NCBI GenBank assembly: GCA_963663035.1 | Contig: OY760074.1 | Span: 214,358-278,357 of the forward strand | Direction: 5' to 3' | DNA from: Acidobacteriota bacterium | GTDB lineage: Bacteria > Acidobacteriota > UBA6911 > RPQK01 > JADFOI01 | Length of the DNA: 64,000 nucleotides | Shown: in pieces, positions 4,690 through 44,228 of the stretch | How positions within the stretch are numbered: position 1 is the stretch's first letter | How the letters are laid out: every line of letters begins with the position of its first letter | The notes under the pieces: model-generated | Told to the model about the DNA's origin: nothing | The model's database searches: none | The model's input: the letters and a program-made list of their open reading frames with translations, nothing else | Made by a program: the position numbers and the translations under genes

Positions 4690-4907
4690 CCTAGCGCCCG
4701 CATTATGCTAAAATTTCTGCTACAGTGTCGCAATCATCCGCGCTGACGGCGTTGTGCGACCCGCAAAGCGGGTACCCCTTGCGCTCCTCGACGTACTGCA
4801 AGAGTACGTCTGCGGGGCGCGACCCGCGAGCGGGTACCCCTCACACGCCTTGTCATCGCGGCGCTTGCGCCACTTCGCTACGAAAACCTATGCATAATGC
4901 GGGCTAG
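4690..4907. mobile_element. MITE family A, copy 1 (218 bp, contains an extra internal hairpin module)
   Basis: Terminal IRs CTAGCGCCCGCATTATGCTAAAA ... TATGCATAATGCGGGCTAG. Internal palindromes: GACCCGCAAAGCGGGTAC, GACGTACTGCAAGAGTACGTC and GGCGCTTGCGCC. No ORF. Related copies at 6292, 34401 and 44075. Confidence 0.7.
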
Positions 4908-6295: not shown

Positions 6296-6445
6296 CCCGC
6301 ATTATGCATAAATTTTCTGCTACAGTGTCGCAATCATCCGCGCTGACGGCGTTATGCGACCCGCAAGCGGGTACCCCTCACACGCCTTGTCATCGCGGCG
6401 CTTGCGCCACTTCGCTACGAAAACCTATGCATATTGCTGGGCTAG
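6292..6445. mobile_element. MITE family A, copy 2 (154 bp including both CTAG flanks)
   Basis: CTAGCCCGCATTATGCATAAATTTTCTGCTACAGTGTCGC ... CTATGCATATTGCTGGGCTAG. The left CTAG supplies the TAG stop of the amidohydrolase (6293-6295). The right CTAG supplies the TAG stop of the minus-strand acyltransferase (6442-6444). Confidence 0.7.
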
Positions 6446-25627: not shown

Positions 25628-25653
25628 CCGGGACTATGCATAATCCCGGCTAG
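25624..25653. repeat. Solo IR-IR palindrome of MITE family A (minimal element or excision footprint)
   Basis: GTAGCCGGGACTATGCATAATCCCGGCTAG consists of two abutted MITE-A terminal repeats. The left flank GTAG contains the TAG stop of the tRNA-binding gene. The right flank is CTAG. Confidence 0.5.
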
Positions 25654-26293: not shown

Positions 26294-26494
26294 AACCCGC
26301 ACTTCTCACACCCGCTCTACTGCAGCGGCGCAATGATCCGCCCTGACTTTGTTGCGCGACCCGCAAGCGGGTACCCCTCGCGCGCCAGTCGGAGCCGCAG
26401 GCTTTAGCCTGCGGGCCCGTGGGCTAAAGCCCACGGCTCTGTTTTCCGGTCCTTCCGCCGCTTCGCGACGACCTGGTGTGAGAAATGCGGGTCA
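26294..26494. mobile_element. MITE family B (chimeric)
   Basis: Terminal IRs AACCCGCACTTCTCACACC ... GGTGTGAGAAATGCGGGTCAA (19 bp, 1 mismatch). Internally carries the GCGACCCGCAAGCGGGTACCCC module of MITE-A and both REP-A hairpins (GCAGGCTTTAGCCTGC, GTGGGCTAAAGCCCAC). Confidence 0.55.
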
Positions 26495-28090
26495 ATAGGG
26501 GGACAGAGCAGACCGTACCCATTTCTTTTGTCCCTTTTTTCCCCGCCAGCGCCAGCCTAGAATGCCGGCATACAGAATCAGGGAAACAACTGAGATCCAC
26601 TTCCCGATGCGAAAGCCTGCCGGCGCATACTCGATGCGAAGATGATGATTTCCCGCACCCAGGGGAACGGCTCGCAAGATGTAGTTGGCGGGCAGAAGGT
26701 CGTAATTCTGTTGAACGCTGCCGGGAAGGGCCACTGCTCGCCAGCCCTTGCTGTAGCTGTCCGTAATCAGCAAGATGGCGGGAGCCGGAAGGCGGGCTTC
26801 CACAACCAGATAATCCGTGCCCTCCTCGGTAATGGTGGCGGTACCAGGCCGGTCAGTTTTGACGGGAGCCGGGACAGGAGCAGTTTCCAGAATGACCTGT
26901 TGCCGAGGGTCGAAAGAGGAGTTGCTCATGGTGGCAAAGATGCGGCCGCGCTCCTGAATGAGCACCCAGTCCTGGATCAATTCCAGCCGCGACAGGGGCG
27001 AGGGGATCTCCTCGAAGCCCTGTCTGCCGCCCTCTGAGAAAAATACATAACGACCTCGCAGCATCCCGAAGAGGGGATGGATGCGCGACAGTTCCAGATA
27101 CTGACTAGCGGTCTGAGGGTTCTGGCCCTGGGTAAATGTCATGAACTCGGCATAGCGCTTGAGCACGCCGGGATCATGTCCCCATAGGTCCTGGGCACCT
27201 GTGCTGAGGGCACTGTTCGGGTTGGGGGGCAGTGAAACACGATAATCACCCGGATTGGCTTCGTAGAATTGCTGTATAAGAGGAAGCCGTGTCGTTTCCA
27301 GATCAAAGGTCGGTCTGTTGGCTGTGGCAAAGATAAACATCTCCAAGGCGGCAAGCAACGGTACGAGATACACGGCTCTGGGAGCCACCCGTGTGCGCCG
27401 CAGCAGCAGACTAAAGAGCAGGCATGAAGCGCTGCAAAGGAGCACACCCTTTGCAGTAAACACGCCTGCACCGTTGACAAAGGCTTGGTCTTGATAGCTA
27501 CCCAGTGGCAGATAGGACTCCCCAGTGGCGGCCACCGCTGACATGAGGGATCCCCACGTCCCGCTGAACCCGGAAGCTGCCGAAAGGTATATCCACAGGC
27601 CCACAGCACCCACCGCCAGTCCTGCGAATGACAGTAGCTTTGCCAGACGTTGACGCCAGGGAGGATCGTGCAGGAGATTGTCCAGGCCAATGGCGGAGAG
27701 CATGACGCTGAACATGGCTACCAGAAAAATGAACTTTGAATTGCCCCGAAACATGTCGAATCCCGGTACGGACCTGTAAAGCAGATTGAAGAGGGGTGTG
27801 TAAGTCCCCAGAGCAAGAACCGATAAAATCAGCGTCATGGAGACCGAAGACAGCCGCAGTTTCCGGCTGCCCCGCACAGCTCCCGACACTGCCAGGACAA
27901 AACCAGTCACACCTATGAACAGCGACATCTCCCACAGATACCACCGTCCCCAGTAACTGCTCATGCCGCCGAAGAATCCTGGGACCAGGAGGGTGAGAAA
28001 GTTCTCTGGCGGGAAGGAGAACATGGCCGCAAACGCATAGGATGTTCCGCTGCTGCGTACACTCTCGCCGGCTGCCTCCAGGCCAGCTAG
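26492..28090 (-). pseudogene. YfhO-family membrane protein gene, C-terminal part, split by IS copy 2
   Basis: Polytopic C-terminal region. It continues in frame with the N-terminal part at 29730-30432 if the IS and one CTAG are removed. Confidence 0.6.
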
Positions 28091-29729
28091 CCCGGATTAT
28101 TCATAAATTCTGAAGAAGGGGTCTGATCGAGGGCACAAAAAGATGCCGTACCTCTTTGATATAAAAGGGGTTATGAAACAACTCCAAACCAAAAAGGTAC
28201 GGCCCAGCGATGCATCAGTCTGCCAGATCAACTTGCCATCTCACCCTGACAGAAAAGTGGTGGCTCGATTCGATGGAGGCCGGCTCTCCTCCGATGCCGG
28301 GCTGCTGTGTCTGTACGCCCTGGATCAACAGCACGGACTGACGGCTGGCTTTGCCTCCTGCCTGAAGGACGCTCGAGATAGCCGCTACGTCCGCCACCAG
28401 ATTCGCGAACTGCTCACCCAGCGCAGCTTTCAGATCGTGGCCGGCTATGAGGACTGCAACGATGCCGACAGCTTGCGCTCGGATCCCATCTTCAAGACCG
28501 TGTGTGATCGGCTGCCGGAAAGCGATCCGGATCTGGCTTCTCAACCCACGCTGTCGCGACTGGAGAACTCGGTGGACTCGAAGGATCTCACTCGCCTGGG
28601 ACAGTGGCTGCTGGAGACCTACTTGAAGCACCGCAAGAAGAGCCGGCCCGAGAAGATCATCCTGGACATCGACAGCACGGATGACGTCACGCATGGGCAG
28701 CAGGAGTTCAGCTTTTACCACGGCTATTATCGCGAGCACATGTATCATCCGCTGCTGCTATTCGATGGCGAGACGGGCGATCTGGTATGTGCGCTACTGC
28801 GGCCCGGCAACCAGGGGGCGGCCGCCCACGCGGTGGCGGTTCTCAAACGGGTGGTGGCCCGGATGCGCCAGGTTCTGGGATCCGATGTTCCGATCGAAGT
28901 GCGAGCCGACAGTGGCTTTGCGACGCCGGCACTGTACGAGTTCTGTGAGGAGGAAAAACTGCAGTATGTGGTGGGCTTTGCCCGCAACTCCCGGCTGGCG
29001 GCCACCGTCGAGCCCTTGGTTGAGCAGGTGCAAGCAGACTATGACGACTCAGGAGAAAAGCAACGCCAGTTCACCGAGCTCGTCTATCAGGCCGACAGTT
29101 GGGACCGGGAGCGGCGCATGGTGGCCAAGGTGGAAGTGAGCGAGCGCGGGTTCAACCGTCGCTTTGTGGTCACCAACCGCCAGGATCTCACGGCCGGGCA
29201 GCTGTATGACCACTACATCGGACGGGGCCAGTGCGAGAACTTCGTGAAAGCTTTCAAAAAAGATCTGGCCATGGATCGCTTGAGCTGCCACCGTTTCCTG
29301 GCCAACCAGTTCCGACTCTTCATCCACGCCCTGGCCTATGTCTTAATCCTGCGCCTGCGGGATTACCTGTGCGGGACTCCCTGGCACAACCTGGAGATTG
29401 AGACGCTCCGCCGCCGCCTGTTCAAAATCGGTGCCCGGGTTCGGGAAACTTCTCGTCGCATCTGGGTGCACCTGGCATCGTCTTATCCCGAACAAAAGCT
29501 CTTCGCATTACTGATGCACCGTCTGTGTCCCACCTGACGGTCCCCTGACTCCCTGCGCCAACACAGATATACAGCCCCCTGCGGGCCGAGCTGTTTCCGG
29601 AAGGGGCTCTCGCTTCATCTCTATTCGGCTCAACAAGCTTGGACGCCTTGTAATCGCACCTGAACACACTCTCAGCCCTGAACTTCCGCAGAAAATCGAC
29701 ACTCACCCCAAACTTATGAATAATTGCGG
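28091..29729 (+). mobile_element. Insertion sequence, IS4-superfamily (best fit IS1380 family), copy 2, 1639 bp, flanked by CTAG/CTAG
   Basis: Same IRs and ORFs as copy 1. CTAG at 28087-28090 and 29730-29733. Inserted in the yfhO-like gene. Confidence 0.8.
28143..29537 (+). CDS. DDE transposase (identical to 20016-21410)
   Basis: Protein identical over 464 aa. Confidence 0.85.
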   Translation: MPYLFDIKGVMKQLQTKKVRPSDASVCQINLPSHPDRKVVARFDGGRLSSDAGLLCLYALDQQHGLTAGFASCLKDARDSRYVRHQIRELLTQRSFQIVAGYEDCNDADSLRSDPIFKTVCDRLPESDPDLASQPTLSRLENSVDSKDLTRLGQWLLETYLKHRKKSRPEKIILDIDSTDDVTHGQQEFSFYHGYYREHMYHPLLLFDGETGDLVCALLRPGNQGAAAHAVAVLKRVVARMRQVLGSDVPIEVRADSGFATPALYEFCEEEKLQYVVGFARNSRLAATVEPLVEQVQADYDDSGEKQRQFTELVYQADSWDRERRMVAKVEVSERGFNRRFVVTNRQDLTAGQLYDHYIGRGQCENFVKAFKKDLAMDRLSCHRFLANQFRLFIHALAYVLILRLRDYLCGTPWHNLEIETLRRRLFKIGARVRETSRRIWVHLASSYPEQKLFALLMHRLCPT

Positions 29730-30432
29730 CTAGGGCTGCGGCTCCCACATACATGCTGCCCAATCCCAGCACCAGCCGTGGTCGTTCCCGTGCCCGGATA
29801 AGACGAAGCCCGCTATAGAGCCCGGCGGCGATAGCCGTGTAAAACACATACTGGGGATGGCCGGCAAGAATCTGCATGGTGATGGCAAACATACCCATCA
29901 GACACCAGGTGAAGGAACGTTCTTGGAGCAGGCCATCAATGGCCAGAAAGAGCAGTGGTGCCCATACCATGGCGCAGAGATTGGGGAGGTGCCCGGCAGA
30001 GACATGCAGGAAATAGGGACCGGAGAACATAAAGAGGATGGATGAAAGGAGGCAAGCTGCTGGATGAAGCCCCCGGTGAAAGGTCCAGAGATAGATAAAC
30101 AGCCCGGCCAGGAACACATGCAGCGCAATGCTCACATTAATTGCCTTGGCAAGCGGCAGCACCAGATACACCCAGTTGGGTGGATAGAGCAAGGCGGACT
30201 GAAAGCCTCCAAAGTATGGCATCCCCGAAAAGATGTGCGGATTCCACAGGGCCAGGTTGCCTTGGCCCAGCTGGCTGAAACCAAACTCGCGCCAATAGAC
30301 GAACTGCGAGGACAGGTCGGTGCCCAATTGGGAGAGAATCACCTCTTTCGACGTGAACAGCACATCGACGAACATGAGAAGCGTCAATCCAAAGAGAACC
30401 AGAAGAGCCAGTAGGAAAGTTTTCTCTCGCAT
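29730..30432 (-). pseudogene. YfhO-family membrane protein gene, N-terminal part
   Basis: MREKTFLLALLVLFGL...DLSSQFVYWREFGFSQ...NPHIFSGMPYFGG is the characteristic YfhO N-terminus. The ORF-track extension to 29422 reads into the IS. Confidence 0.6.
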
Positions 30433-30474
30433 GTGTCTCTCAAAGCCGGAGTTGCCTCCGACGCGCTTGAAACT

Positions 30475-32181
30475 TTAAAAATGAATATATTTTTCTATTT
30501 CCAGAGCACTGACTGTGGGCAGATGGATGGGTTGGCTGGTACGGTGGAAAATAAGCACTCCCTGAGTAAAAGGATCGTCGACTTCAATCGGAGCAAAGAT
30601 CCTCCAGGGAATCTCGGGTCGGGTTAAATTAGCCCATAGGACAGGAAGGACGGCTTCCAGCTCATATCCGCCCTCGCCATAGATGGCCGCCAACAACTGA
30701 GAAGATCGCTCGGGTGAGCGGCCCCCCACAATCACGTAATCGGGAACCGTGTTTTCCCAAAAGAGATCTGCCCTCAACTCCGCTGCATGCTTCTTGGCAA
30801 AGGGTGCCTGGTTGGTTAAAAGCCCGCAGAATTTGTGTTCGGGATTGTGATGTATCTGGATCGTATTCAAAGCTGTGGGTATGATGAAGATACAGTCCTC
30901 GGGTGAAATCTCTTCTTGAATGAAATGGCTGATCGCTTCACTGCCCGTAGTGTAATCATTCATCACCTCTCCAACATACTGCAGCAGACGTGAGTGCAAA
31001 CCGATCCGGCCGAAGAAGTTAAAGGTCAGCACATTACTCGACAGGAGAATAACCAGGAAAAGTTCGGGCAGACCGCGAAAGCGCGTTTTGCTCAGCAGCT
31101 CGTAAATCCTGGCTGCCACAGCAGCACTGATGGGGATGAGGAGAACATAATAGCGCATGTCTGTATCGGTGGCCGTCGAATCAGGGGTTTGAAGGGAAAC
31201 GAGTGACACTGCAGTGATGATCCCCATGCCATAAGCCAATGTCAGGAGGATGCTCCTGAGGTGGTTTATTTCCGCTCTGCCCAGCGCGGCGGCTCCCACG
31301 GCTCCGAAAAGCAGCATGCCCACCGGAAAAAACTCAAAGCGAACAGCGTCGCGCGGCACCATGAACATGAGACGAAAAAACTTGCTCACATGGTCAGTCA
31401 TTCCTGACTCCAATACTTGCCCCATCACATGGTCGTTGCGGAGACCCACCCAGGTCGCTGATACCACTCCCACCAGAATAATCACAGCTAGAAAAATCAG
31501 ATTCCTCCTATTGCGGTATCTCTCGCGCAGCAGACTGATGATAATGACGGCCACGGCCCCGCCAGCATAAAGATATTGGCTCAAGACCAGTAAGCAGAGG
31601 AACAGGGTTCCCAGCAGGATCCACCAACGGTATTTTCGGACACGAGGAAGGGCAGCCCACACCCACAGAAGGCCGGCGAAAAACGTGAGGCCCAGGGCGT
31701 AGTAGCGAAGCTGGCGGATATATAAGAGGTAAGGGACCGACAGAGCAAGAATCAGGGCCACCATCCAATATTCATCACTGTCAAACTCGTGCTTGAACCA
31801 GGCTGCCAGGAGGGGAATCGAAAAGAGCCCAATGAGTACAAACAGAGCGCGCCCTCCCGCGGCACTGTCTCCAAAAATCTTCTGGCTCAGACCAGCCACA
31901 AGGTATTGTAAAGGAGGCGAGTGGGTGTTGATCATGTCTTCATTGACCCACCCCATCATCCCGTAGGCCATCAGGTTTCGTCCGTCCCACCCCACCATCT
32001 GGCCGGTCTCCATGAGATTGCGACCGTACACCGAGGTGAAAGCTTCATCGTCCCAGAAATCGTTATTTCCCAGGCCCCAAAAAGCCAGCAGTCCGGCCAG
32101 CACAGTCAAAAAGACGACAGCTCGCTTTCGGTTCAACGGCCCGTTCCACCCCAGCCTTTGTTCAGGAATTTCCTGCTCCAA
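30475..32181 (-). CDS. GT39/GT83-like (PMT_2, ArnT-like) lipid-linked-sugar glycosyltransferase
   Basis: 568 aa, about 12 TM helices. N-terminal DDEAF...periplasmic loop architecture of ArnT/PMT family. Confidence 0.6.
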   Translation of the reverse strand: MEQEIPEQRLGWNGPLNRKRAVVFLTVLAGLLAFWGLGNNDFWDDEAFTSVYGRNLMETGQMVGWDGRNLMAYGMMGWVNEDMINTHSPPLQYLVAGLSQKIFGDSAAGGRALFVLIGLFSIPLLAAWFKHEFDSDEYWMVALILALSVPYLLYIRQLRYYALGLTFFAGLLWVWAALPRVRKYRWWILLGTLFLCLLVLSQYLYAGGAVAVIIISLLRERYRNRRNLIFLAVIILVGVVSATWVGLRNDHVMGQVLESGMTDHVSKFFRLMFMVPRDAVRFEFFPVGMLLFGAVGAAALGRAEINHLRSILLTLAYGMGIITAVSLVSLQTPDSTATDTDMRYYVLLIPISAAVAARIYELLSKTRFRGLPELFLVILLSSNVLTFNFFGRIGLHSRLLQYVGEVMNDYTTGSEAISHFIQEEISPEDCIFIIPTALNTIQIHHNPEHKFCGLLTNQAPFAKKHAAELRADLFWENTVPDYVIVGGRSPERSSQLLAAIYGEGGYELEAVLPVLWANLTRPEIPWRIFAPIEVDDPFTQGVLIFHRTSQPIHLPTVSALEIEKYIHF

Positions 32182-32188
32182 ACTTGAG

Positions 32189-33355
32189 CTAGCTCCTTAT
32201 AGCCTCTCTCAGGGCAGTGGCCGTGTACTCCCCGTCCTCTTCGCTGAAGTCGTGAAAGAGAGGCAGGAGGATGCATTGCTCCTGGGCCCGTTCGGACTCG
32301 GGCAACGGCAGGGGCAGGGGATTATTTGCATAGGCCTCTTCGCGGTGAGCGCACATGATTCCCCGGCGCGTGGAGATGCCACAGTCGAGCAACACTTGCA
32401 TCACCTCCTGCTGGACACAGCCTTCTGGTAAACGCACACAGTAACTTTGCCAGTTGCTGCGCGCCCAGGAAGGCTCCTCTGGCAGCAGCAGTCCGGGGAT
32501 GTCGCCCAAAAGTTCTCGATACCGATCGGCCAGAGAGCGACGCTGCTTGACGAGATCGCTCACCTTCTTGAGCTGTTCGCGACCCACCGCAGCCTGAATG
32601 TCAGTCAAGCTGTACTTGTAGCCGAGAGCCGGGTAGGTTTCAAAAATGACCTTGTTGGAATCGTGTCGCACTGCGTCGGACACGCTCATTCCATGCTGGC
32701 GCCAGTGGCGAAACTTTTCGTCCCACTGACCGCGAGAGGTGGTCAGCATGCCACCATCACCCGTTGTGATGAGTTTACGGGGATGAAAGGAAAAGCAGGC
32801 AATGTCTCCATGGGGCTTCCCGATCTTTTCCCAATTACCCTCCTCCAGGATTTCGCTGCCGACGGCACAGGCGGCATCCTCGATCACCGGAAGGGAATGG
32901 CGCTGGGCAATCTGGAGAATCGCTTTCAAGTCGCACGGCATCCCCATTTGATGGACACACAGGATGGCTCGGGTACGGTCCGTTATCGCTTCCCCTAGGA
33001 CCTCTGGGTCCATGTTAAAGGTACCGGGCTGAATGTCCACAAAGACTGGTGTGGCTCCGCAGTAGCGGATGCTGTTGGCGGTGGCGATGAAGGAATGGCT
33101 GACGGTGATGACCTCATCGCCCGGCTGGACGCCGACCGCCAATAGGGCCAGATGCAGGGCGCCGGTGCAGCTGGAGACGGCGCAGGCGTATGGGCTTCCT
33201 ACCAGTACGGCAAATTCCTGCTCGAATGCGGCCACCTCAGGACCCTGGGTCACCCAAGCTGAGAGGATGGGACGGCTTGACGCCTGCACCTCCGCCTCAT
33301 CCAGCCACGGCTTGGAGAGGGGAATGCTGCGGGTCTTATGACTGCTTTTCGACAT
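32189..33355 (-). CDS. DegT/DnrJ/EryC1/StrS-family PLP-dependent sugar aminotransferase (ArnB-like)
   Basis: 388 aa. LDEAEVQA...TSCTGALHLAL...SFHPRKLITTGDGGM (PLP-lysine region) is typical of DegT/ArnB. Confidence 0.8.
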   Translation of the reverse strand: MSKSSHKTRSIPLSKPWLDEAEVQASSRPILSAWVTQGPEVAAFEQEFAVLVGSPYACAVSSCTGALHLALLAVGVQPGDEVITVSHSFIATANSIRYCGATPVFVDIQPGTFNMDPEVLGEAITDRTRAILCVHQMGMPCDLKAILQIAQRHSLPVIEDAACAVGSEILEEGNWEKIGKPHGDIACFSFHPRKLITTGDGGMLTTSRGQWDEKFRHWRQHGMSVSDAVRHDSNKVIFETYPALGYKYSLTDIQAAVGREQLKKVSDLVKQRRSLADRYRELLGDIPGLLLPEEPSWARSNWQSYCVRLPEGCVQQEVMQVLLDCGISTRRGIMCAHREEAYANNPLPLPLPESERAQEQCILLPLFHDFSEEDGEYTATALREAIRS

Positions 33356-34357
33356 CTAAAGCTTCCATTTCCAGTTGTAAAGAATTTCTTGCTCTAACAA
33401 CTCCTCTGCCGTCTTGACGCTTTCCAGATACCACTGCTCCAGGTTCATCAATCCCTGGCGCAGCGGAACACGAGGTGTATAACCCAGCATCTCACGAGCT
33501 TTGGAGGCATCCGCCCACAGGCGGGGGACATCACCGGGGCGAGGGTCGTCGAGGATGATCTGCGCATCGGATAGACCGACGACCTCAGCCACCTCCCGCG
33601 CCAAATCGACAATACGCACCTCCTTGCCTTGACCGAGATTAATGGTTTCTCCGAGTGCCTCTTTCGAGGAACCGGCCCGCAGAATCCCCCAGGCCGTATC
33701 GCTGACATAGGTGAAGTCGCGGGTCTGGGTTCCGTCGCCGAAGATTACCATCGGCTGACCCGCCATAGTGCGCAGCATGAATTTGGGGATCACCTCTCCG
33801 CAATCTCCTTCATGATGGCAGTGAGGGCCATAGGTGTTAAACGGCCGCACCACCACCGTGGGATAGTTGTAGGTTTGATGGAAGGCGCGGGTATAGCATT
33901 CTCCGGCCAGTTTCGACGCACCATAAACGGTCCTAGGGAAGGTGGGAGCCTCCTCACATTGCGGAAACCTGCGAGTTGTACCGTAGACTTCGGAACTGGA
34001 GACATACACAAATCGCTCCACTCCGACCTCTCGGGCCACCTCCAGCAGCTGCAGCGTGGCCGTTGCATTCACTTCATGGTTTTCCTGGGGAGAGTGGATG
34101 GAATGACGCACCCCCATACAGGCCAGATGGAACACTCTCTTGACTCCCTGCATGGCCTGGCGCATGCGGGATTCATCGCGGATGTCGGCGATCACCCATT
34201 CCACCTTATCGCCAGGGCAGTCGTCCAGGTTCTCGCGTTTGCCGTTGACCAGGTTGTCGACGACCGTGACGTGGGCGCCGGCCTTGACGAGCTGTCTGGT
34301 CAGCTCTGAGCCGATAAAGCCTGCGCCGCCGGTGACCAACATTCGTATATCCGCCAT
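33356..34357 (-). CDS. Extended-SDR NAD-dependent sugar-nucleotide dehydratase/decarboxylase (UDP-glucuronate decarboxylase-like)
   Basis: Start MADIRMLVTGGAGFIGS. VDNLVNGKRENL resembles UXS/ArnA-C-terminus. YGASKLAGE contains the YxxxK catalytic motif. Confidence 0.75.
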   Translation of the reverse strand: MADIRMLVTGGAGFIGSELTRQLVKAGAHVTVVDNLVNGKRENLDDCPGDKVEWVIADIRDESRMRQAMQGVKRVFHLACMGVRHSIHSPQENHEVNATATLQLLEVAREVGVERFVYVSSSEVYGTTRRFPQCEEAPTFPRTVYGASKLAGECYTRAFHQTYNYPTVVVRPFNTYGPHCHHEGDCGEVIPKFMLRTMAGQPMVIFGDGTQTRDFTYVSDTAWGILRAGSSKEALGETINLGQGKEVRIVDLAREVAEVVGLSDAQIILDDPRPGDVPRLWADASKAREMLGYTPRVPLRQGLMNLEQWYLESVKTAEELLEQEILYNWKWKL

Positions 34358-34400
34358 GCTGAGAATTCCCTTATCTCCACTATTGTCGCACAGTTGCCGT

Positions 34401-34601
34401 ATAGGCGGGATTATGCATAAATTGTCTACTGCAGTGCCGCAATCATCCACGCTGACTGCGTTGTGCTTCCTTGGGCTCCTCGGCGTACTGCATGAGTACG
34501 CCGAGGAGCCCGACCCGCAAGCGGGTACCCCTCGCAGGCCTTGTCATCGCGGCGCCTGCTGCACTTCGTCACGAAAATCTATGCATAACCCCGCCTCCTA
34601 G
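34401..34601. mobile_element. MITE family A, copy 3, inside the glycan locus
   Basis: ATAGGCGGGATTATGCATAAATTGTCTACTGCAGTGCCGC ... ATGCATAACCCCGCCTCCTAG. Carries a 14-bp-stem hairpin CTCCTCGGCGTACTGCATGAGTACGCCGAGGAG. Left flank is a degenerate ATAG. Confidence 0.65.
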
Positions 34602-34613
34602 GCAGGGACCCAA

Positions 34614-34640
34614 GCCGGGATTATGCATAACCCCGGCTAC
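34614..34640. repeat. Second solo IR-IR palindrome of MITE-A, immediately right of copy 3
   Basis: GCCGGGATTATGCATAACCCCGGCTAC. Indicates nested or repeated insertion at this site. Confidence 0.4.
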
Positions 34641-34644
34641 CCTT

Positions 34645-35373
34645 TTATCCGTCCGCTTTCTTCTGCAGGATCAGCATTCGATGCTTGGGTTGGGCAAGGC
34701 TTTCATGGGGAACGTCATGTTCTCCCACCAGATCCAGACCCCAGGATGCTTTCAGAAGCCGGCGGAGTGCCGGGCAGTCATAGAGGTGTGGCAGCAGGTA
34801 CATGTAGTGAATCCGTTCCCTCAGCGATGGCTCGTCGTATCGTCTGCCGTGCAGGACTTTGGCAGCGGCCAAGAGAATCGAGTCAGTCAAGGGGTTGCGC
34901 AACAGGCGAAAGGCGCGACGGAGGGACCAGAGTATGTGGTTGTAGGCGCAGGTATAGGGAATCGTTGCTACCAGCTTGCCTCCCGCAACCAGATCGGAGT
35001 TGATTTTCCCGAAGAGTGTTGCCTGAGGTGCATCGATATTCTGGAGAGTGGAGTCCGAGACGATCAGATCAAAAGGTGTGGCCTCGAAGTGCAGATAGTC
35101 GGCCACTTCGAATGTCAACCGTTCCTGGCCTGGCTGAGCACGGGCATACTCCGTTGCCCGCTGGATATTCATCTCACCAATATCGATCCCGGTGAGATGA
35201 GCATTGGGTAGAGCCTTGGCCAGGTCCAACAGCTGCCGGCCGGTTCCACATCCCAGATCCAGGACGCGGAGAGATCGCTGGGCGTCCACATAGGGGAGAA
35301 GGAGTTCCGTTGTTTGACGGCACCGGTCCTGAGGAGCCGTAAATGTCTTGTCCAGGAAATCCTCTCTCGCCAT
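34645..35373 (-). CDS. Class I SAM-dependent methyltransferase
   Basis: Start MAREDFLDK (ATG overlaps the upstream TGA by 1 nt). VLDLGCGTG motif I. Confidence 0.65.
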   Translation of the reverse strand: MAREDFLDKTFTAPQDRCRQTTELLLPYVDAQRSLRVLDLGCGTGRQLLDLAKALPNAHLTGIDIGEMNIQRATEYARAQPGQERLTFEVADYLHFEATPFDLIVSDSTLQNIDAPQATLFGKINSDLVAGGKLVATIPYTCAYNHILWSLRRAFRLLRNPLTDSILLAAAKVLHGRRYDEPSLRERIHYMYLLPHLYDCPALRRLLKASWGLDLVGEHDVPHESLAQPKHRMLILQKKADG

Positions 35374-36533
35374 CAACTCGCTCGATTGACTTTCGTCTTT
35401 TCGAAGGCTCGCTCCAGCACTTCCCCGGGTGTGCTCCAGAGATAGCGATCCGAATCGGACACATAGTCGAGAAAACGCCGGTAGGCGTCCAGGGCAGGTG
35501 CGTTGCCGGAGAATCGGGCTTCGCAATGGGTCAGCAGCACAACCACGCCTCCTGCACGGGAGATGGCCTCCCCACAGCGGATCCAGAAGTCGAGGGACTG
35601 GTTTGGAGAATAACCCAGAGCCTTGAGACTTCCGTCCCGAGGAAGGCTTATGGGAATCTCGACAATGCCTTCGATCTGAAAAGGTCGGGCGCTGGAACAA
35701 CCGTTGTTGGGAACCGGAAAGAGCCCTCCAGATGTGGGTATGCTGGAGTCATAGCGGTAGAATTCCCGGAGGGATTTGAGCAGGCTGGGGGTGCGCAGCA
35801 GAGATGGGGAACGATAACCGATGATGTCATACCGCCCGATGAGCTCGCTTGCTCCTTGCAGTCTTTCTCTTTGCTGGTCGGGATCGCAGAAGGCCGTACG
35901 GTTGGCATGGTCGTGCCCGTGGATTCCGACCTCGTGTCCCCGATGCTTCAGCTCGTCCAGCAAAGCATAATCGATCGGCCAGCCGCAGGGCACAATATAG
36001 CTGCTGGAGCGGGCGCCCACCTTCTCCTCTAAATCGAGAAACTTTCTCACAACGTTCTCCAGGCCTTCGAGTGAATCCAGGTCGTGAGAGAGCAGAACCG
36101 GTGTGGGACCCGAGCGGAAGGGTGATGGCTCACTCCCACACAGATCGGACAGGAAGTCGACGCTCAAATCCAGGGGCCACCTGGGAAAAGTTGCCCAGCG
36201 CTCTGAGTGCCGACGCTTCCAGCGTCCAATCACCAAGGCTACCAGGCTGCGAAGCCTGGCCGGTACCATCTGGTAGGAAACCGGCAGTCGGGAGGAGACT
36301 GGCTGGTGGGGAGTATAGGCCGCCCGTGATCTCAAATCCTGGATATCTCGAGGGTTAATGGGAGGGATCTCCGCTGGGATGGTCAAGTTGTCATCCGCGT
36401 CGAGGTTATCAATGAGCCCGCTTTTCTCCAGTGTGGACCGAGGGAGAGACACCTGCATGCCCTCTGCCCAGGCGACAGGCGAATCGGCTGGGACCTCTCT
36501 GATTCGCACGGGAATCAGCCTCTCAATGTCCAC
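35373..36533 (-). CDS. Polysaccharide deacetylase (CE4/NodB) family, ArnD-like
   Basis: YIVPCG...GHEVGIHGHDH motifs. Start uncertain (GTG 36533 or ATG 36458). The ORF-track start at 36659 overlaps the upstream gene. Confidence 0.6.
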   Translation of the reverse strand: MDIERLIPVRIREVPADSPVAWAEGMQVSLPRSTLEKSGLIDNLDADDNLTIPAEIPPINPRDIQDLRSRAAYTPHQPVSSRLPVSYQMVPARLRSLVALVIGRWKRRHSERWATFPRWPLDLSVDFLSDLCGSEPSPFRSGPTPVLLSHDLDSLEGLENVVRKFLDLEEKVGARSSSYIVPCGWPIDYALLDELKHRGHEVGIHGHDHANRTAFCDPDQQRERLQGASELIGRYDIIGYRSPSLLRTPSLLKSLREFYRYDSSIPTSGGLFPVPNNGCSSARPFQIEGIVEIPISLPRDGSLKALGYSPNQSLDFWIRCGEAISRAGGVVVLLTHCEARFSGNAPALDAYRRFLDYVSDSDRYLWSTPGEVLERAFEKTKVNRAS

Positions 36534-37557
36534 GGCTGCCTTCGGCCTCCGGGTGTGCACTTCCCTCTGTGAGAATTGAAGGGTCAGTCTTTTCGGGTTT
36601 ATGGGAGGACCTGGCCTGGTCGCTGATGAAATAGAGAGGCCGGCGAACAACCTCCGCATAGATACGGTAAAGATATTCCCCCACGATACCCATCAGGAAG
36701 CACTGGATTCCGAAGAACAGAGCCATGGTCATCATTTGGCTCGTCCACCCCAGCACCGGGTTGCCGGTCGACCAACTATAAAGCAAGTAAAGGGCTAGGA
36801 CGATGGTCAGCAGAAAGGCCACGACTCCCACCAATGTAATCAGCCTCACTGGCAGGAAAGAAAACCCGATGAAGGCATCGTACATGGTGATGACCATCTT
36901 GCTGAGAGTCCAACCGGAGACGCCGGAAACACGCCGTTTGCGGTCGTAGTCGACCACCGCCTGTTCAAAGCCTGTCCAGGCTGCCAAGGCGAAGGTAATG
37001 CGGCTGCGCTCTTGAAACTGGCGCATGCACTCAGCTACTCGCCTGTCCACAAGGAAAAAGCTGCCGGTGGTAAATTGGGATCCGTGGGGCATGGCAAACC
37101 GGCGCAGCAGTCTGTAGAACAAATTGCTGGTGAGGATTCGCCAGAATCGATCCTTTCTGCTCTGACGACGTCCCCACACGATTTGGGCTCCACCTTCCCA
37201 CTTCTTGAGGAACTCGAGAATCACTTCGGGGGGGTCCTGTAGATCGCAGGCCAGGATGGTAATGACATCTCCTTCGGCCTGGGCAAAGCCCGCACTCAGT
37301 GCGGTATGGGAACCGAAGTTTCGTGACAGTCGAATGCCCTGGAATCGGGGATCTCTCTTACAGATTTCACGAATGATCTCCCAGCTGTGGTCGTGGCTGC
37401 CATCTTCGATGAAGAGCACCTGGAAATCGTAGTCCGAGCGAGAAAGTAAGACTTCCTTGACCGACCGCTCGTAATCGGGCAGACTATCCTCCTCGTTGTA
37501 CACGGCTGTGAGGATGACGACACGAGGAGATGTGCCTCCTGGGGGGGATTTACTCAT
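36523..37557 (-). CDS. GT2-family polyprenyl-phosphate sugar transferase (ArnC/DPM1/CsbB-like)
   Basis: Start MSKSPPGGTSPRVVILTAVYNEE (ATGA overlap with the sulfotransferase stop). EDGSHD DxD-like motif. C-terminal 2 TM helices, as in ArnC/GtrB. Confidence 0.75.
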   Translation of the reverse strand: MSKSPPGGTSPRVVILTAVYNEEDSLPDYERSVKEVLLSRSDYDFQVLFIEDGSHDHSWEIIREICKRDPRFQGIRLSRNFGSHTALSAGFAQAEGDVITILACDLQDPPEVILEFLKKWEGGAQIVWGRRQSRKDRFWRILTSNLFYRLLRRFAMPHGSQFTTGSFFLVDRRVAECMRQFQERSRITFALAAWTGFEQAVVDYDRKRRVSGVSGWTLSKMVITMYDAFIGFSFLPVRLITLVGVVAFLLTIVLALYLLYSWSTGNPVLGWTSQMMTMALFFGIQCFLMGIVGEYLYRIYAEVVRRPLYFISDQARSSHKPEKTDPSILTEGSAHPEAEGSRGH

Positions 37558-38318
37558 GAAGTCTCCCACATCTGAAATTCGAGGCCCAGCAGTTCCTCCA
37601 GCTCGGAATTGGGTTGGGCATACCGATCCTGTAGCATTCTGAGGCTTTCCGCGGACAGGAGTTTTCCATTTTTCCTGGAGGGGTTACTCACTCCCACACT
37701 GGCCGCGTTCTCGGCTTGCACTGAAATCCCCAGAAACTCATACAGGCTCCGGGCCAGCTCCTGAGGCTTGGTCATGATGTCTTCATATCTGAGACAAAGG
37801 ATTTGTTCTCTGGGGAAGCGCTTGAAATAGGGGTAAAGCAGTTGCGCGTAAAGCCCGCGTGAGAAGTAGGCGTGAGGGCGAGCATAGCGCAGGTGCTCGG
37901 GAACGTCACGTTCTCGCTGCTCTTCCAGGTCCAGGGCCGTCTCAAAGTCTTCACTTTCCAATCCGTTCATGCTCGACCAAAGAAAGTTGGAGTAGGCTCG
38001 ACCAGCAGGCTCGCGCAGGATGAAAAGCAGTTTCACCCGCGGCAGATGTTGATGGATTCGCTCGGCTGCTCGGGGACTCTCCAGGTAATTGGTGCTCTTT
38101 TCGCCGGCAAGCTGTTGATCGGGTGCGTTGGAGAACCACGTTCGCTCATAGTAATGGATGCCTTTCTGGTAGATCTCATCGACAAGAAAGAACTTGGGCT
38201 CGGGCTTCACGGGTACCGCCATGTAGACCTGCGGGTGGTGAGCCAGCAGATCGTAGAGCCAGGTGGTGCCACTGCGAGGAGCACCGCCAATCAGGAAATC
38301 GGGTAAGCGTTCAGGCAC
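37554..38318 (-). CDS. Sulfotransferase family protein (PAPS-dependent)
   Basis: 254 aa. GAPRSGTTWLYDLL is the 5-prime-PSB loop. The later RxxxS region matches the Sulfotransfer_3 fold. Confidence 0.7.
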   Translation of the reverse strand: MPERLPDFLIGGAPRSGTTWLYDLLAHHPQVYMAVPVKPEPKFFLVDEIYQKGIHYYERTWFSNAPDQQLAGEKSTNYLESPRAAERIHQHLPRVKLLFILREPAGRAYSNFLWSSMNGLESEDFETALDLEEQRERDVPEHLRYARPHAYFSRGLYAQLLYPYFKRFPREQILCLRYEDIMTKPQELARSLYEFLGISVQAENAASVGVSNPSRKNGKLLSAESLRMLQDRYAQPNSELEELLGLEFQMWETS

Positions 38319-39177
38319 CGGACTTTCTCACCACAATAAAGAGGGTTGGGGCCAGGGGAAGGAAGCTCTTTCGATTCACAAAAGGAAAGTCGAGAAATTT
38401 CAGCGGGAACAGCAGTACGCAAAAAATCAGAGAGAGAGAAGCCTTGATCTTCTCCTGGCCAAAACTGAAAAGGATGGAAAGGAACTCGATCAGACAGACC
38501 AGTCCCAGGGTCACAGGACCTGTGGCGTTGATTTGCTCGATCATTTCCCACTCCTTGAACAAAGCCTCCTGTCCTTTATGAGTATACCGCTGAAAGTCAT
38601 GTGGGGAGGCATGAAAGGGGAACAGAAACGGGATCAAGTGCAGACCCAGACCTCCCGGTCTGGTGCAGCGGTCGAATTGTTGGATGACCAGGGAGTTGTC
38701 GGAAATATGCTCCAGAACGCTTCGAGAGACAAAGGCATCCACGCTGTCGCTCTTAAACGGGAGCATCTTCAGATCGCACACCACATCCACGGCGTCATAG
38801 TCAAAGAAGTCAAGGGTGATGATATTTTCATCCATCCGGTAATTCCCACAACCCACATCAACCACGATCTGCCGGGCCGGATCGAGACGCTGACAGATCT
38901 TGCCCCGAAAGTTGAACGGATAGGTGGGCGCAATCACATTGCGGCCGATCGTGTAATAGTATCGACCCAGCCACTTCTTCAGGAAGCCTTTGAGCTTGTC
39001 CAACTCGTCGACTCTCTCCGGCACTGAGACGAAGTAAATCTTTCCGCGCTGGATGGAATAGGCGGCCTGGCAGGGCTGGCAAGTCGCCTGGTCCAGCGTA
39101 TAGTGCAAGTTCCCCTGACAGGCGGGACAGGCTAGGATGGGTTTTAGACGCTCCAGGCGATGGTTGGAATCGCTCAT
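38311..39177 (-). CDS. SAM-dependent methyltransferase with N-terminal Trm112-like zinc ribbon and C-terminal TM segments
   Basis: CPACQG...CQPCQ ribbon. VVDVGCGN motif I. Hydrophobic C-terminus. Confidence 0.6.
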   Translation of the reverse strand: MSDSNHRLERLKPILACPACQGNLHYTLDQATCQPCQAAYSIQRGKIYFVSVPERVDELDKLKGFLKKWLGRYYYTIGRNVIAPTYPFNFRGKICQRLDPARQIVVDVGCGNYRMDENIITLDFFDYDAVDVVCDLKMLPFKSDSVDAFVSRSVLEHISDNSLVIQQFDRCTRPGGLGLHLIPFLFPFHASPHDFQRYTHKGQEALFKEWEMIEQINATGPVTLGLVCLIEFLSILFSFGQEKIKASLSLIFCVLLFPLKFLDFPFVNRKSFLPLAPTLFIVVRKSGA

Positions 39178-39185
39178 GGATTCCC

Positions 39186-40211
39186 TTAACTGGCCAAAAT
39201 CTCCAACTTGCCCTGATTCTTCATCGATCGGGTAGCGGACTCAAGGATTTTGACGACGCGTAATCCGCTTTCTCCATCCGTTAAGGGTGTTTCACCCCTA
39301 TCGATGCACTGGATGAAGTGAGACACCTCCGCTCGCAAGGCTTCGGTCCTGTCCAACTGAGGGGCCAACATGTCGCCCGATCGATATCCGACAAGCATCT
39401 CGTAGATGCTCTTCTGGTCTGCAGCAACATCGATTCCCTTATCGTACACCTTGACCTTCTCGCTGGGCTCAAGATCGTCGTAAACCACCATATTCTTGCT
39501 TCCGCTGATCAGAGTACGACGAATTTTGACCGGTGCAAGCCAATTGACGTGAAGATGGGCAATCAAGGAGTTATCGAAGAACAGCGTCAGAAAGGCTATA
39601 TTCTCGGGCTGGTCCTGGACATGGCTCATCCCGGTTGCAGACACCGAGCGCGGCTGGGTGGAAAGGATGTAGTCCATGATCGACAGATCGTGGACGGCCA
39701 GATCCCAGATCACGTTGACATCATGCTGAAACAGTCCGAGATTAATGCGGACCGAATCGTAATAGAAAATATCTCCTAGCTTTCCGTTTTGGACCAACTC
39801 TTTGATCTTCTTTACGGCGCCCGTGTAGATAAAAGTGTGGTCAACCATCAACACCCGATTCTTCCCGGCGCTTTGTTCGATCAGTTGTTGAGCTTGTTCT
39901 GAACTGGAGGCCAGGGGCTTTGTGACCAGGACGTGTTTCCCTTCCTGAAGCGCCCGATTGGCCAGATCAAAGTGGGTCGAAACGGGTGTGGCGATCACCA
40001 CTGCATCTACAGTCGTGTCGGTGATGAGCTCGTGAGGGTCCGTTGTGACTTTGACTCCATGATAAAGCTGTTGTGCTTCAGCCAGCCTCTCCTGATCCAG
40101 ATCAGAAATAGCCACCACCTGGCTTGCCGGAGTCAGAGCGAAATTCCGAACCAGATTCGGTCCCCAATAACCGTAACCGATCACCCCAACCCGAATCATT
40201 TGTCTTGCCAA
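39186..40211 (-). CDS. Gfo/Idh/MocA-family NAD(P)-dependent sugar(-nucleotide) dehydrogenase
   Basis: IRVGVIGYGYWGPN Rossmann start, EKP-like LVTKPLA, C-terminal alpha/beta domain. WbpB/UDP-sugar 3-dehydrogenase-like. Confidence 0.8.
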   Translation of the reverse strand: MARQMIRVGVIGYGYWGPNLVRNFALTPASQVVAISDLDQERLAEAQQLYHGVKVTTDPHELITDTTVDAVVIATPVSTHFDLANRALQEGKHVLVTKPLASSSEQAQQLIEQSAGKNRVLMVDHTFIYTGAVKKIKELVQNGKLGDIFYYDSVRINLGLFQHDVNVIWDLAVHDLSIMDYILSTQPRSVSATGMSHVQDQPENIAFLTLFFDNSLIAHLHVNWLAPVKIRRTLISGSKNMVVYDDLEPSEKVKVYDKGIDVAADQKSIYEMLVGYRSGDMLAPQLDRTEALRAEVSHFIQCIDRGETPLTDGESGLRVVKILESATRSMKNQGKLEILAS

Positions 40212-40320
40212 GCCTCCTGGATAGAATGAGAAATTGGACTCTTGAGTCTTCAGAAGGGACTGATGAGGGACAGTTTGATAGTCACCAATTCATGGTAACA
40301 CGGAACTCGCTTCGTTCGAC

Positions 40321-40346
40321 GAGTGAGTCCGGTCACCGACTCACTC
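40321..40346. terminator. 9-bp-stem hairpin overlapping the thiolase stop codon
   Basis: GAGTGAGTC-CGGTCACC-GACTCACTC. No U-tract. Confidence 0.3.
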
Positions 40347-41549: not shown

Positions 41550-41903
41550 TGTTAATGACCTCCTAGATGCCTTCTTTGAGCAATTTCCTTACAAATGAGA
41601 CAAGCTTTACTTGAAGGCTTCATTCCGGGATTCTGGCAGCGGGTGTTCAGGGAGGTCAAGATCGAGGCCGCACAAGCCCTTCGACCGCAGGCGTTGCCTA
41701 AGGCTACGTCGAGGATCGAAGGGCGCGGAGAACGAAGAGCTTGGCCTTCCTGGACACCCGCGCTAACCCTGAAACACAAGTCGTACCAATATCTTATCAT
41801 TCACGAAAGAGCTACTCCCAGAGCTGCCAGGCGAGTGACCGAAGTTTGGGCAGAAAACGAAGTCATTGTAAGCTGTGGCGAACGAGAGGGAGATTCTTTG
41901 AGC

Positions 41904-44078: not shown

Positions 44079-44228
44079 CCGGGATTATGCATAAATTTTC
44101 TACTGCAGTGCCGCAATCATCCACGCTGACTGCGTTGTGCGACCCGCAAGCGGGTACCCCTTCGCACGCCTTGTCATCGCGGCGCCTGCGGCACTTCGTC
44201 ACGAAAACCTATGCATAATCCCGGCTAG
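44075..44228. mobile_element. MITE family A, copy 4 (154 bp including CTAG flanks)
   Basis: CTAGCCGGGATTATGCATAAATTTTCTACTGCAGTGCCGC ... CTATGCATAATCCCGGCTAG. The left CTAG overlaps the TAG stop of the upstream gene. Confidence 0.7.

Follow-up and report, generated by a model that had tools for sequence, protein, structure and literature searches.

The ArnB, ArnC, ArnA, ArnD and ArnT enzymes make 4-amino-4-deoxy-L-arabinose (L-Ara4N) and put it on lipid A, and LgmABC of Bordetella represents a parallel route, in which glucosamine (GlcN) or galactosamine (GalN) reaches lipid A via undecaprenyl-phosphate-linked N-acetylhexosamine (Und-P-HexNAc) and a deacetylase. The Arn, NaxD and Lgm systems add cationic groups, driving resistance to antimicrobial peptides; bacterial envelopes seldom contain sulfated sugars. 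The Pgf system of Streptococcus, which acts on proteins, also has a short-chain dehydrogenase/reductase (SDR) epimerase and two polytopic membrane proteins. As to NaxD, of the Francisella/Acinetobacter route, it deacetylates undecaprenyl-phosphate-linked GalNAc (PMC10927774). Here we report a ten-gene locus from an Acidobacteriota bacterium (assembly GCA_963663035.1, contig OY760074.1, positions 214,358 to 278,357), in which relatives of Arn enzymes are encoded together with a sulfotransferase (ST) and two methyltransferases (MT1 and MT2). This whole stretch of 64,000 nucleotides is termed the window, and all coordinates below refer to it unless another locus is named. We consider it probable, on balance, that the locus serves extracytoplasmic envelope glycosylation through a polyprenyl-phosphate carrier, in the manner of the Arn/NaxD and GtrB/GT-C systems, with the sulfotransferase and the methyltransferases as additions. 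Judged by the homologs detected, a module conserved in at least twelve phyla is present here in a reduced, lineage-specific acidobacterial form.

Gene calls on the source contig place the ten genes on the minus strand between 26492 and 40199, overlapping or abutting one another. The first encodes a Gfo/Idh/MocA oxidoreductase (Gfo; 337 aa, 39186-40199) and is followed after an 8-nt gap by the gene of the S-adenosylmethionine (SAM) methyltransferase MT1 (288 aa, 38311-39177), which in turn overlaps by 8 nt with that of the sulfotransferase (254 aa, 37554-38318). A 4-nt overlap leads to a polyprenyl-phosphate glycosyltransferase of the GtrB/ArnC type (GT2; 344 aa, 36523-37557), an 11-nt overlap to a de-N-acetylase of the CE4/NodB fold (CE4; 386 aa, 35373-36533) and a 1-nt overlap to MT2 (242 aa, 34645-35373). 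The sole real gap in the operon, of 288 nt, separates MT2 from an extended SDR predicted to act on a nucleotide sugar (333 aa, 33356-34357), and contains a miniature inverted-repeat transposable element (MITE; 34403-34596). The SDR gene adjoins, with 0 nt between them, the gene of a pyridoxal-phosphate-dependent aminotransferase of the DegT family (388 aa, 32189-33355); a polytopic GT-C glycosyltransferase (568 aa, 30475-32181) follows after 7 nt. The last gene, 42 nt further on, encodes a polytopic YfhO-like protein and is interrupted by an insertion sequence (IS; 28091-29729) on the plus strand, which leaves an N-terminal part at 29734-30432 and a C-terminal part at 26492-28090. Scans of the window or the MITE region with Rfam models and for tRNAs, promoters and terminators gave no match. 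The ten co-directional, tightly packed genes of the original prediction, which had been made from the DNA letters with no database searches, are thus borne out by gene calling, and its gene set stands. It had set the limits of the locus at 29730-40211, however, and the lower bound has to be moved to 26492, because the C-terminal part of the YfhO-like protein lies beyond the IS. Pfam searches, with bit scores judged against the curated gathering cutoff of each family, support every family that had been named, and none of the ten proteins was assigned to an unrelated family; the YfhO match of the last protein is marginal, as are those of CE4 and of the Trm112-type ribbon in MT1. Probably, the locus is a functional operon except for its IS-split last gene.

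The sulfotransferase was used to follow the module across genomes. Its homologs number more than 1400, and the best 120 are all at least 58% identical to it; 285 matches at E <= 1e-30 came from an exhaustive search across 1.84 billion cluster representatives. When one genome was scanned per species, at least 272 genomes had relatives, with the best matches in Acidobacteria metagenome-assembled genomes (92% and 79% identity). Relatives were seen in Acidobacteriota, Binataceae, Vicinamibacterales, Elusimicrobiota, Desulfobacterota, Alpha- and Betaproteobacteria, Acidimicrobiia and other Actinomycetota (including the cultured Nocardioides caldifontis), as well as in Planctomycetota, Nitrospirota, Opitutales, Chloroflexota, Eremiobacterota and Hydrogenedentota. 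Across phyla ST, GT2, SDR and DegT are about 45-70% identical, and CE4 goes down to 37% in one locus. The core genes occur together in Acidobacteriota, Binataceae, Desulfobacterota, Thioploca, Planctomycetota, Actinomycetota, Chloroflexota and others. The Arn-like logic of the enzyme families that had been proposed for the locus holds. The combination is not a one-off, since its core recurs in at least twelve phyla.

We annotated 83 loci around the sulfotransferase by BLAST with proteins of the window and of the first context loci; many of them end at contig ends. The most frequent neighbour is GT2 (68 of the 83 loci), followed by the SDR and the ArnB-type aminotransferase DegT2 (59 each), Gfo (57), a hexapeptide acetyltransferase (50) and a second DegT protein, DegT1 (45). 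CE4 was found in 26 loci and MT2 in 22, where the two co-occur (22 related loci); less common are a WbmS-like protein (21), a FemAB-like protein (17), adenosine 5'-phosphosulfate (APS) kinase (13) and MT1 (11). Where at least 6 kb is available on both sides (48 loci), GT2 is present in 43, and CE4 or a WbmS-like deacetylase in 32; WbmS is itself CE4-like in fold, therefore both variants of the module have in common a deacetylase that follows GT2. A C3-type aminotransferase and a hexapeptide acetyltransferase are further components of the fuller versions. The GT-C protein of the window has only 34 homologs, and other loci carry PMT_2, YfhO, GT87 or unclassified polytopic proteins in its place, so the donor genes are broadly kept and the GT-C is narrow, which fits a shared donor and lineage-specific acceptors. 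Lipid A is not a general acceptor, because the module also occurs in monoderm Actinomycetota. In Thioploca ingrica the gene order is SDR-DegT-ST-GT2-CE4-LPG_synthase_TM-GT87, with proteins 59-68% identical to those of the window; by the predicted roles of its genes this order would run from synthesis of the donor through loading of the carrier and deacylation to a flippase candidate and finally a GT-C.

Several related loci differ around this core. The Thioploca ingrica locus (L085; AP014633.1, 865717-886877, in a complete genome) has, upstream, a Gfo gene, two further DegT genes and a formyltransferase gene, so that three DegT genes in all, a small GT2 and a GT-C of the GT87 family surround the SDR-DegT-ST-GT2-CE4 core; an Arn-like formyltransferase was seen in no other locus. 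The window contains no homolog of this formyltransferase (tblastn with the Thioploca query), nor of LPG_synthase_TM or GT87. In another variant (L002/L007, L008, L025, L038, L039, L045-L048, L069, L073, L075 and others), CE4 and MT2 are replaced by the WbmS-like protein, which has a CE4-like fold by its PDB namesake 3hft, and a FemAB/Acetyltransf_6-like protein, which suggests a different decoration of the freed amine. A B12-binding radical SAM protein and/or LPG_synthase_TM, a flippase candidate, stands straight after CE4 or MT2 in some versions (13325-16650 in L003; L040, L061 and L070; L027, L030, L032, L044 and L085). This arrangement recalls the HpnJ/HpnL pair of hopanoid synthesis, yet no Hpn model matches it. 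A hopanoid-type reading of the locus, based on GT2 with these two genes in relatives, was rejected, as no Hpn model matches GT2 and the two genes are absent from the window. For the polytopic neighbours in minimal ST-GT2 loci a Pfam scan gave no family.

Gfo, DegT and SDR proteins are typical of O-antigen loci, and the WbmS-like proteins of the sister variant trace to an O-antigen locus of Bordetella, so the locus could be thought to be an ordinary cluster for the repeat unit of an O-antigen, a capsule or an exopolysaccharide, with a product of a known type. We find this hardly credible. Domain searches of the locus and the flanking open reading frames (ORFs) detected one glycosyltransferase domain among the ten locus proteins and no Wzx, Wzy, Wzz, ABC exporter or initiating phosphoglycosyl transferase, GT-C proteins follow the single glycosyltransferase, which is of the GtrB type, and the flanking genes (thiolase, a DUF5916/CBM9 protein, amidohydrolase and GCS2) are unrelated to glycan synthesis. 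The domain searches thus did not reveal a common O-antigen cluster with a known product.

The proposed loading of a carrier lipid rests on GT2. It matches Pfam Glycos_transf_2 (100.5 bits) and has two predicted transmembrane segments, the C-terminal helices expected of this type; its best NCBIfam matches are PgfS of the Streptococcus Pgf system (193 bits, cutoff 500) and ArnC (151 bits, cutoff 529), both below cutoff, and among solved structures GtrB sll0501 (195 bits) precedes ArnC (137 bits) and DPMS (53 bits). These scores identify it as a GtrB-type polyprenyl-phosphate glycosyltransferase, nearer to GtrB than to ArnC. For CE4 and GT-C, sequence searches of solved structures gave nothing useful (no ArnD match for CE4, no ArnT match for GT-C), and structure prediction with Foldseek was used instead. 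CE4 is a marginal Pfam match (Polysacc_deac_1, 25.7 bits, cutoff 23.1), but its AlphaFold2 model (mean pLDDT 90.4) gave 76 Foldseek matches at E <= 0.001, and among the 50 listed almost all belong to the CE4 family, including 3rxz (E 4e-13), ArnD 8t0j (E 3.6e-8, rank 14), WbmS 3hft (E 4.7e-7, rank 19) and the deacetylase domain of the heparan N-deacetylase/N-sulfotransferase (NDST). Residues H150, D151, D153, H205, H209, R241, P243 and H336 are invariant in 25 homologs, and the model identifies CE4 as a NodB-fold de-N-acetylase, in which an Asp and two His would bind the metal and a further His would be catalytic. The GT-C protein scores 32.1 bits with Pfam PMT_2 (cutoff 26.1), and its AlphaFold2 model (mean pLDDT 87.4) has ArnT 5ezm as the best Foldseek match (E 7e-8, TM-score 0.53-0.55, 13% identity). 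GT-C enzymes make up all of the top 31 fold matches, and W43, D45 and E46, in the first loop, are invariant; from the model, the protein is assigned to the GT-C glycosyltransferases (GT39/GT83-like).

These matches also bear on the nature of the acceptor. A Pgf- or PMT-like protein O-glycosylation system, in which the GT-C would place the sugar on Ser/Thr of surface proteins and not on a lipid or polysaccharide, is suggested by PgfS as the best NCBIfam match of GT2, by the assignment of the GT-C to PMT_2, a family named for protein mannosyltransferases, and by the presence of the module in both monoderms and diderms, which suits a protein acceptor. On the other hand, the PgfS score lies far from its cutoff, Pmt4 and Pmt1/2 are weaker fold matches of the GT-C (E 8e-4 to 1e-2) than ArnT, and the locus encodes no candidate acceptor protein; we regard protein glycosylation as unlikely, though as the least unlikely of the alternatives considered here.

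Three enzymes of the locus are predicted to act on the nucleotide sugar. The SDR matches Pfam Epimerase (201 bits) and GDP_Man_Dehyd (212 bits); in NCBIfam it scores 221 bits with a LegB-type 4,6-dehydratase, 187 bits with dTDP-glucose dehydratase and 53 bits with ArnA-type PRK11908 (cutoff 294). Among solved structures the order is Mth375 (199 bits), UDP-xylose synthase (UXS; 152 bits) and dTDP-glucose dehydratase (143 bits), the function of Mth375 being unresolved (PMC12820599). The motif S-S-S-E-V-Y-G of the SDR is conserved among the module orthologs and is nearer to the S/T-x-E of UXS-type enzymes than to the T-D-E of dTDP-glucose dehydratases; GDP-mannose 4,6-dehydratase has this motif as well. 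The enzyme had been likened to the C-terminal domain of ArnA and to UXS; the scores put it no nearer to the ArnA domain than to the other families. We infer that it yields a 4-keto intermediate, as a 4,6-dehydratase or a decarboxylase. The DegT protein (Pfam DegT_DnrJ_EryC1, 351 bits) is closest among solved structures to ArnB (227 bits), ahead of the C3 enzymes QdtB (151 bits) and WbpE (126 bits), and in NCBIfam to PseC (296 bits), ArnB (273 bits, cutoff 631) and LegC (244 bits), and by these matches it is of the C4 (ArnB/PseC/LegC) type. DegT1 of the fuller loci is, in contrast, a C3-type aminotransferase (QdtB 333, DesV 330 and WbpE 282 against ArnB 187 bits). Gfo (Pfam GFO_IDH_MocA, 90.9 bits) has as its best NCBIfam match the archaeal UDP-GlcNAc 3-dehydrogenase (187 bits, under the cutoff of 450), its PDB matches include bacterial GnnA 7bvj, and it is probably of the UDP-HexNAc 3-dehydrogenase type. 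The pairing of Gfo with DegT had been taken as the usual route to a 3-amino sugar, which does not hold here, since the DegT of the window is of the C4 type and neither DegT1 nor the hexapeptide acetyltransferase of related loci has a homolog anywhere in the window.

The sulfotransferase scores above the cutoff with both Sulfotransfer_1 (73 bits) and Sulfotransfer_3 (75 bits) of Pfam. Its motifs GAPRSGTTW, which would bind the 5'-phosphosulfate, R102...R107-A-x-S110, in which RxxS would bind the 3'-phosphate, and E40-P-K42-F-F are conserved or invariant in 20 homologs, and a candidate catalytic base is kept. These features mark it as a sulfotransferase dependent on 3'-phosphoadenosine-5'-phosphosulfate (PAPS), and because PAPS is its donor it must work in the cytoplasm. 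The presence of an APS kinase gene within 13 of the loci argues that sulfation is real. Its closest solved relative is 3rnl, followed by the heparan sulfate 3-O-sulfotransferases and the sulfotransferase domain of NDST, the likeness to these being at the superfamily level only (E 1e-11 to 1e-15). The idea that sulfation stands in for the formylation carried out by ArnA, with CE4 later stripping the group, was rejected, as cleavage of a sulfamate by a CE4 amidase is not expected. Of the two methyltransferases, MT1 combines Methyltransf_11 (36.3 bits) with an N-terminal four-Cys ribbon of the Trm112 type (Trm112p, 18.6 bits, under the cutoff of 22), and a hydropathy count predicts two C-terminal transmembrane segments; it probably acts at the membrane on the lipid-linked intermediate. 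MT2 matches Methyltransf_31 (68.6 bits) and is predicted to be a soluble class I SAM methyltransferase.

With all enzymes considered, one may ask whether the locus is simply a canonical Arn system, oddly annotated, for the L-Ara4N modification of lipid A. The closeness of DegT to ArnB, the resemblance of the S-S-E motif of the SDR to the T-S-E of UXS and ArnA, the match of GT2 to ArnC (137-151 bits), the presence of ArnD among the fold matches of CE4 and the ArnT fold of the GT-C would all agree with such a system. However, no ORF of the locus contains a Formyl_trans_N domain, the NCBIfam scores for ArnC, ArnB and ArnA-type proteins given above are far under their cutoffs, GT2 is nearer to GtrB, and the GT-C has no match to ArnT at the sequence level. 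Moreover, a sulfotransferase, two methyltransferases and Gfo have no role in the Arn pathway, and carriers of the module include monoderm Actinomycetota and Chloroflexota, in which there is no lipid A. That the locus is a canonical Arn system is thus very improbable.

Carrier-linked envelope glycosylation, the reading that we prefer, can be laid out as a series of steps drawn from homology and conserved gene order; the observations themselves cover families and folds, the layout of the operon, its conservation and the selection on its genes. Acting on a UDP/NDP-HexNAc or a uronate, the SDR would oxidise C4 together with 4,6-dehydration or decarboxylation, and the ArnB-type DegT would aminate C4 to give a nucleotide-linked 4-amino sugar. 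Gfo would oxidise C3, and in the fuller relatives the C3 aminotransferase and the acetyltransferase would finish a 3-acetamido group. ST could sulfate the nucleotide-linked or lipid-linked sugar in the cytoplasm, by O- or N-sulfation, and GT2 would load the sugar onto polyprenyl phosphate. On the carrier CE4 would strip an N-acetyl group, as NaxD and ArnD do, and MT2 and the membrane-anchored MT1 would methylate the product, plausibly at the freed amine. After flipping, the ArnT-fold GT-C would move the sugar to an envelope acceptor, a role that the YfhO-like protein could have shared before the IS insertion. The scheme of the original prediction, in which a C55-P-linked amino sugar is tailored and then transferred by polytopic enzymes, is supported in its general logic, with the exact sugar, the site of sulfation and the acceptor supplied by inference. 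A more specific proposal is possible, although we would not yet call it probable: the core of ST, GT2 and deacetylase, together with the SDR/DegT and Gfo branches, would represent a widespread envelope modification by PAPS-dependent sulfation of a carrier- or nucleotide-linked amino sugar before flipping, and GT-C enzymes would install a sulfated, methylated and partly de-N-acetylated (zwitterionic) sugar on acceptors at the cell surface, in more than twelve phyla. By analogy with the coupled deacetylase and sulfotransferase logic of NDST, the sulfation may be N-sulfation of a free amine.

Several observations weigh against envelope glycosylation of this kind. The chemistry of the SDR is ambiguous, the S-S-E motif suiting non-decarboxylating enzymes as well, and a UDP-sugar 6-dehydrogenase gene was found near the module in only one of the 83 loci, which is not decisive between a decarboxylase and a dehydratase. 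Gfo stands in the window with neither a C3-type aminotransferase nor an acetyltransferase as its partner within 64 kb, and no flippase candidate (GtrA, ArnE/F or an LPG_synthase_TM homolog) was found in the window. Nothing fixes the substrate of ST, and a few loci consist of ST, GT2 and a polytopic protein alone. Finally, close relatives differ in gene content: a related acidobacterial genome (L006) keeps the acetyltransferase gene upstream of Gfo and lacks the SDR gene between MT2 and DegT, therefore the pathway may differ between near neighbours.

Comparison with this relative, the closest long one (7717-19003 in L006 against 26492-40341 in the window) shows the SDR present and the acetyltransferase absent in the window, and the C3-type aminotransferase in neither. 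The thiolase gene directly abuts Gfo in the window and in its closest relative, and the differences in synteny with L006 and a second locus (L005) indicate that gene content is shifting within the acidobacterial lineage. Between the thiolase and the next conserved gene lies a DUF5916/CBM9-like gene (827 aa, 41595-44078, plus strand), which is absent from the syntenic position in L006 (6256-6498) and is flanked by a MITE copy; it may be a lineage-specific insertion. All genes of the locus are under purifying selection: the ratios of nonsynonymous to synonymous substitution rates (dN/dS) against L006 are 0.12 for Gfo and 0.13-0.35 for the other locus genes, with 0.20 for the YfhO-like gene and 0.10 for the neighbouring thiolase.

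That the operon has been hit by mobile elements, as originally predicted, is correct on both counts. The YfhO-like gene is cleanly split by the IS, whose transposase (28143-29537; DDE_Tnp_1_4, 506 bits) lies between 19-nt imperfect terminal inverted repeats and whose target is duplicated as a 4-bp CTAG at 28087-28090 and 29730-29733. Deletion in silico of the IS and one CTAG joins the two parts in frame into a single ORF of 765 aa. The restored protein scores 27.2 bits with Pfam YfhO (PF09586), under the cutoff of 28.5, while its intact ortholog in L006 (775 aa, 76% identical) reaches 31.0 bits; good alignment is limited to the C-terminal end of the 835-position model. A second IS copy at 19964-21602, identical in 1638 of 1639 bases and with CTAG on both sides, sits exactly at the stop codon of a 490-aa ORF (18491-19963); from this near-identical copy it follows that the IS was recently active. 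The insertion in the YfhO-like gene is recent and precise, with CTAG as its target. The MITE, which had been placed at 34401, is real and spans 194 bp between MT2 and SDR. Its 24-nt inverted repeats are 88% complementary and resemble the IS ends, it contains a perfect 17-bp internal hairpin, and it is derived from the resident IS; a scan of the MITE region found no terminator or promoter consensus. Further copies occur at 44077-44227, 4723-4897 and 6291-6433, with a partial one at 26316-26381 (86-98% identical over the matched parts), and short palindromes (25629-25648 and 34613-34638) resemble a pair of IS/MITE terminal repeats joined back to back.

Such insertions, the activity of the IS and the absence of DegT1 and the hexapeptide acetyltransferase that relatives possess could mean that the locus is decaying and that its product is no longer defined after these losses. 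We regard decay as distinctly unlikely. The other nine ORFs are intact, their dN/dS values are similar to that of the thiolase, the IS insertion is recent and precise, and the MITE carries no terminator signature. Furthermore, Gfo occurs with no DegT1 in 12 of the 48 loci with full flanks, from several phyla, a recurrence that points to a stable configuration.

How, then, does the locus compare with described systems? Searches of the literature found no description of a sulfotransferase coupled to an Arn, undecaprenyl or GtrB/ArnC-type system, and nothing relevant on WbmS or on PDB code 8VR2, and NCBIfam has no curated equivalog that covers ST, GT2 or CE4. The wps/gsf clusters of Actinoplanes (PMC13390465) were considered as a prior description and rejected, as they are unrelated Wzx/Wzy clusters. 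The combination was correctly predicted not to be a described pathway, in so far as no published description was found in the searchable literature. One reason given for its novelty fails, namely the lack of a formyltransferase, since the NaxD system already uses an N-acetyl sugar and a deacetylase acting on undecaprenyl phosphate (PMC10927774). That system is likewise free of a formyltransferase, with an N-acetyl sugar loaded by an ArnC-like GT2, deacetylation on the carrier and an ArnT-like GT-C (PMC10927774). The NaxD and Lgm systems use an unmodified UDP-HexNAc, however, with no SDR, DegT, Gfo, ST or methyltransferases, and are set apart from the locus by gene content. The resemblance to Arn would extend through the whole chain, from a 4-keto sugar made by an SDR via an ArnB-type aminotransferase and a GT2 acting on undecaprenyl phosphate to deacylation by a CE4 fold and transfer by an ArnT-fold GT-C, and ArnB, ArnC, ArnD and ArnT are among the nearest solved relatives of the locus enzymes. 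Unlike Arn, the locus lacks a formyltransferase and ArnE/F and its proteins fall below the cutoffs of the Arn equivalog models, and it adds ST, two methyltransferases, Gfo and a second polytopic protein, the YfhO-like one. With the three-component systems GtrA/GtrB/GtrC, CsbB-YfhO (for teichoic acid) and PgfS/PgfM (for protein) it shares a GT2 that matches GtrB (195 bits) and PgfS (193 bits) and has GT-C and YfhO-like proteins, but it has no GtrA, its donor would be heavily tailored and the relation to YfhO is at the family threshold.

Other parallels concern parts of the locus. Gfo resembles the UDP-GlcNAc 3-dehydrogenases of the WbpB/WbpE/WbpD and GnnA/GnnB pathways, and the fuller relatives add the C3 aminotransferase and the hexapeptide acetyltransferase, whereas the window keeps the dehydrogenase only. 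With Gfo, a C3 aminotransferase, an acetyltransferase, an SDR of the S-S-E type and a C4 aminotransferase, the full module has the enzyme set to be expected for a 2,3,4-triamino sugar, as in the pathway of Psychrobacter cryohalolentis, in which 2,3,4-triacetamido-2,3,4-trideoxy-L-arabinose occurs in nature (PMC8040287). That product, however, enters an O-antigen repeat unit, its pathway has no ST, GtrB-type GT2 or CE4, and the window lacks the C3 branch. The pairing of a CE4-fold deacetylase with a sulfotransferase resembles NDST, whose deacetylase domain matches the CE4 model, although the locus enzymes would act on a single sugar unit borne by a nucleotide or a lipid carrier and not on a polymer. 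An archaeal precedent for sulfation of a lipid-linked sugar is Agl7 of Haloferax, which contributes to sulfation of dolichol-phosphate-linked hexose (PMC3892788).

If the proposal is true, the module would make the first bacterial sulfated lipid-carrier glycosyl donor, and we know of no earlier one in bacteria; a sulfotransferase truly coupled to amino sugar machinery would mean a new kind of surface-charge chemistry. The module points to an as yet undescribed sugar and acceptor in lineages that abound in soil and sediment. Two of its carriers, Nocardioides caldifontis YIM 730233 and Solidesulfovibrio sp. DCME, are in culture, and the enzymes are small and soluble or belong to known membrane classes, which makes the predictions directly testable. 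Set beside the Arn, NaxD/Lgm and three-component systems, the machinery of the locus is of a known kind; its tailoring by a sulfotransferase and methyltransferases and the breadth of its conservation are new.

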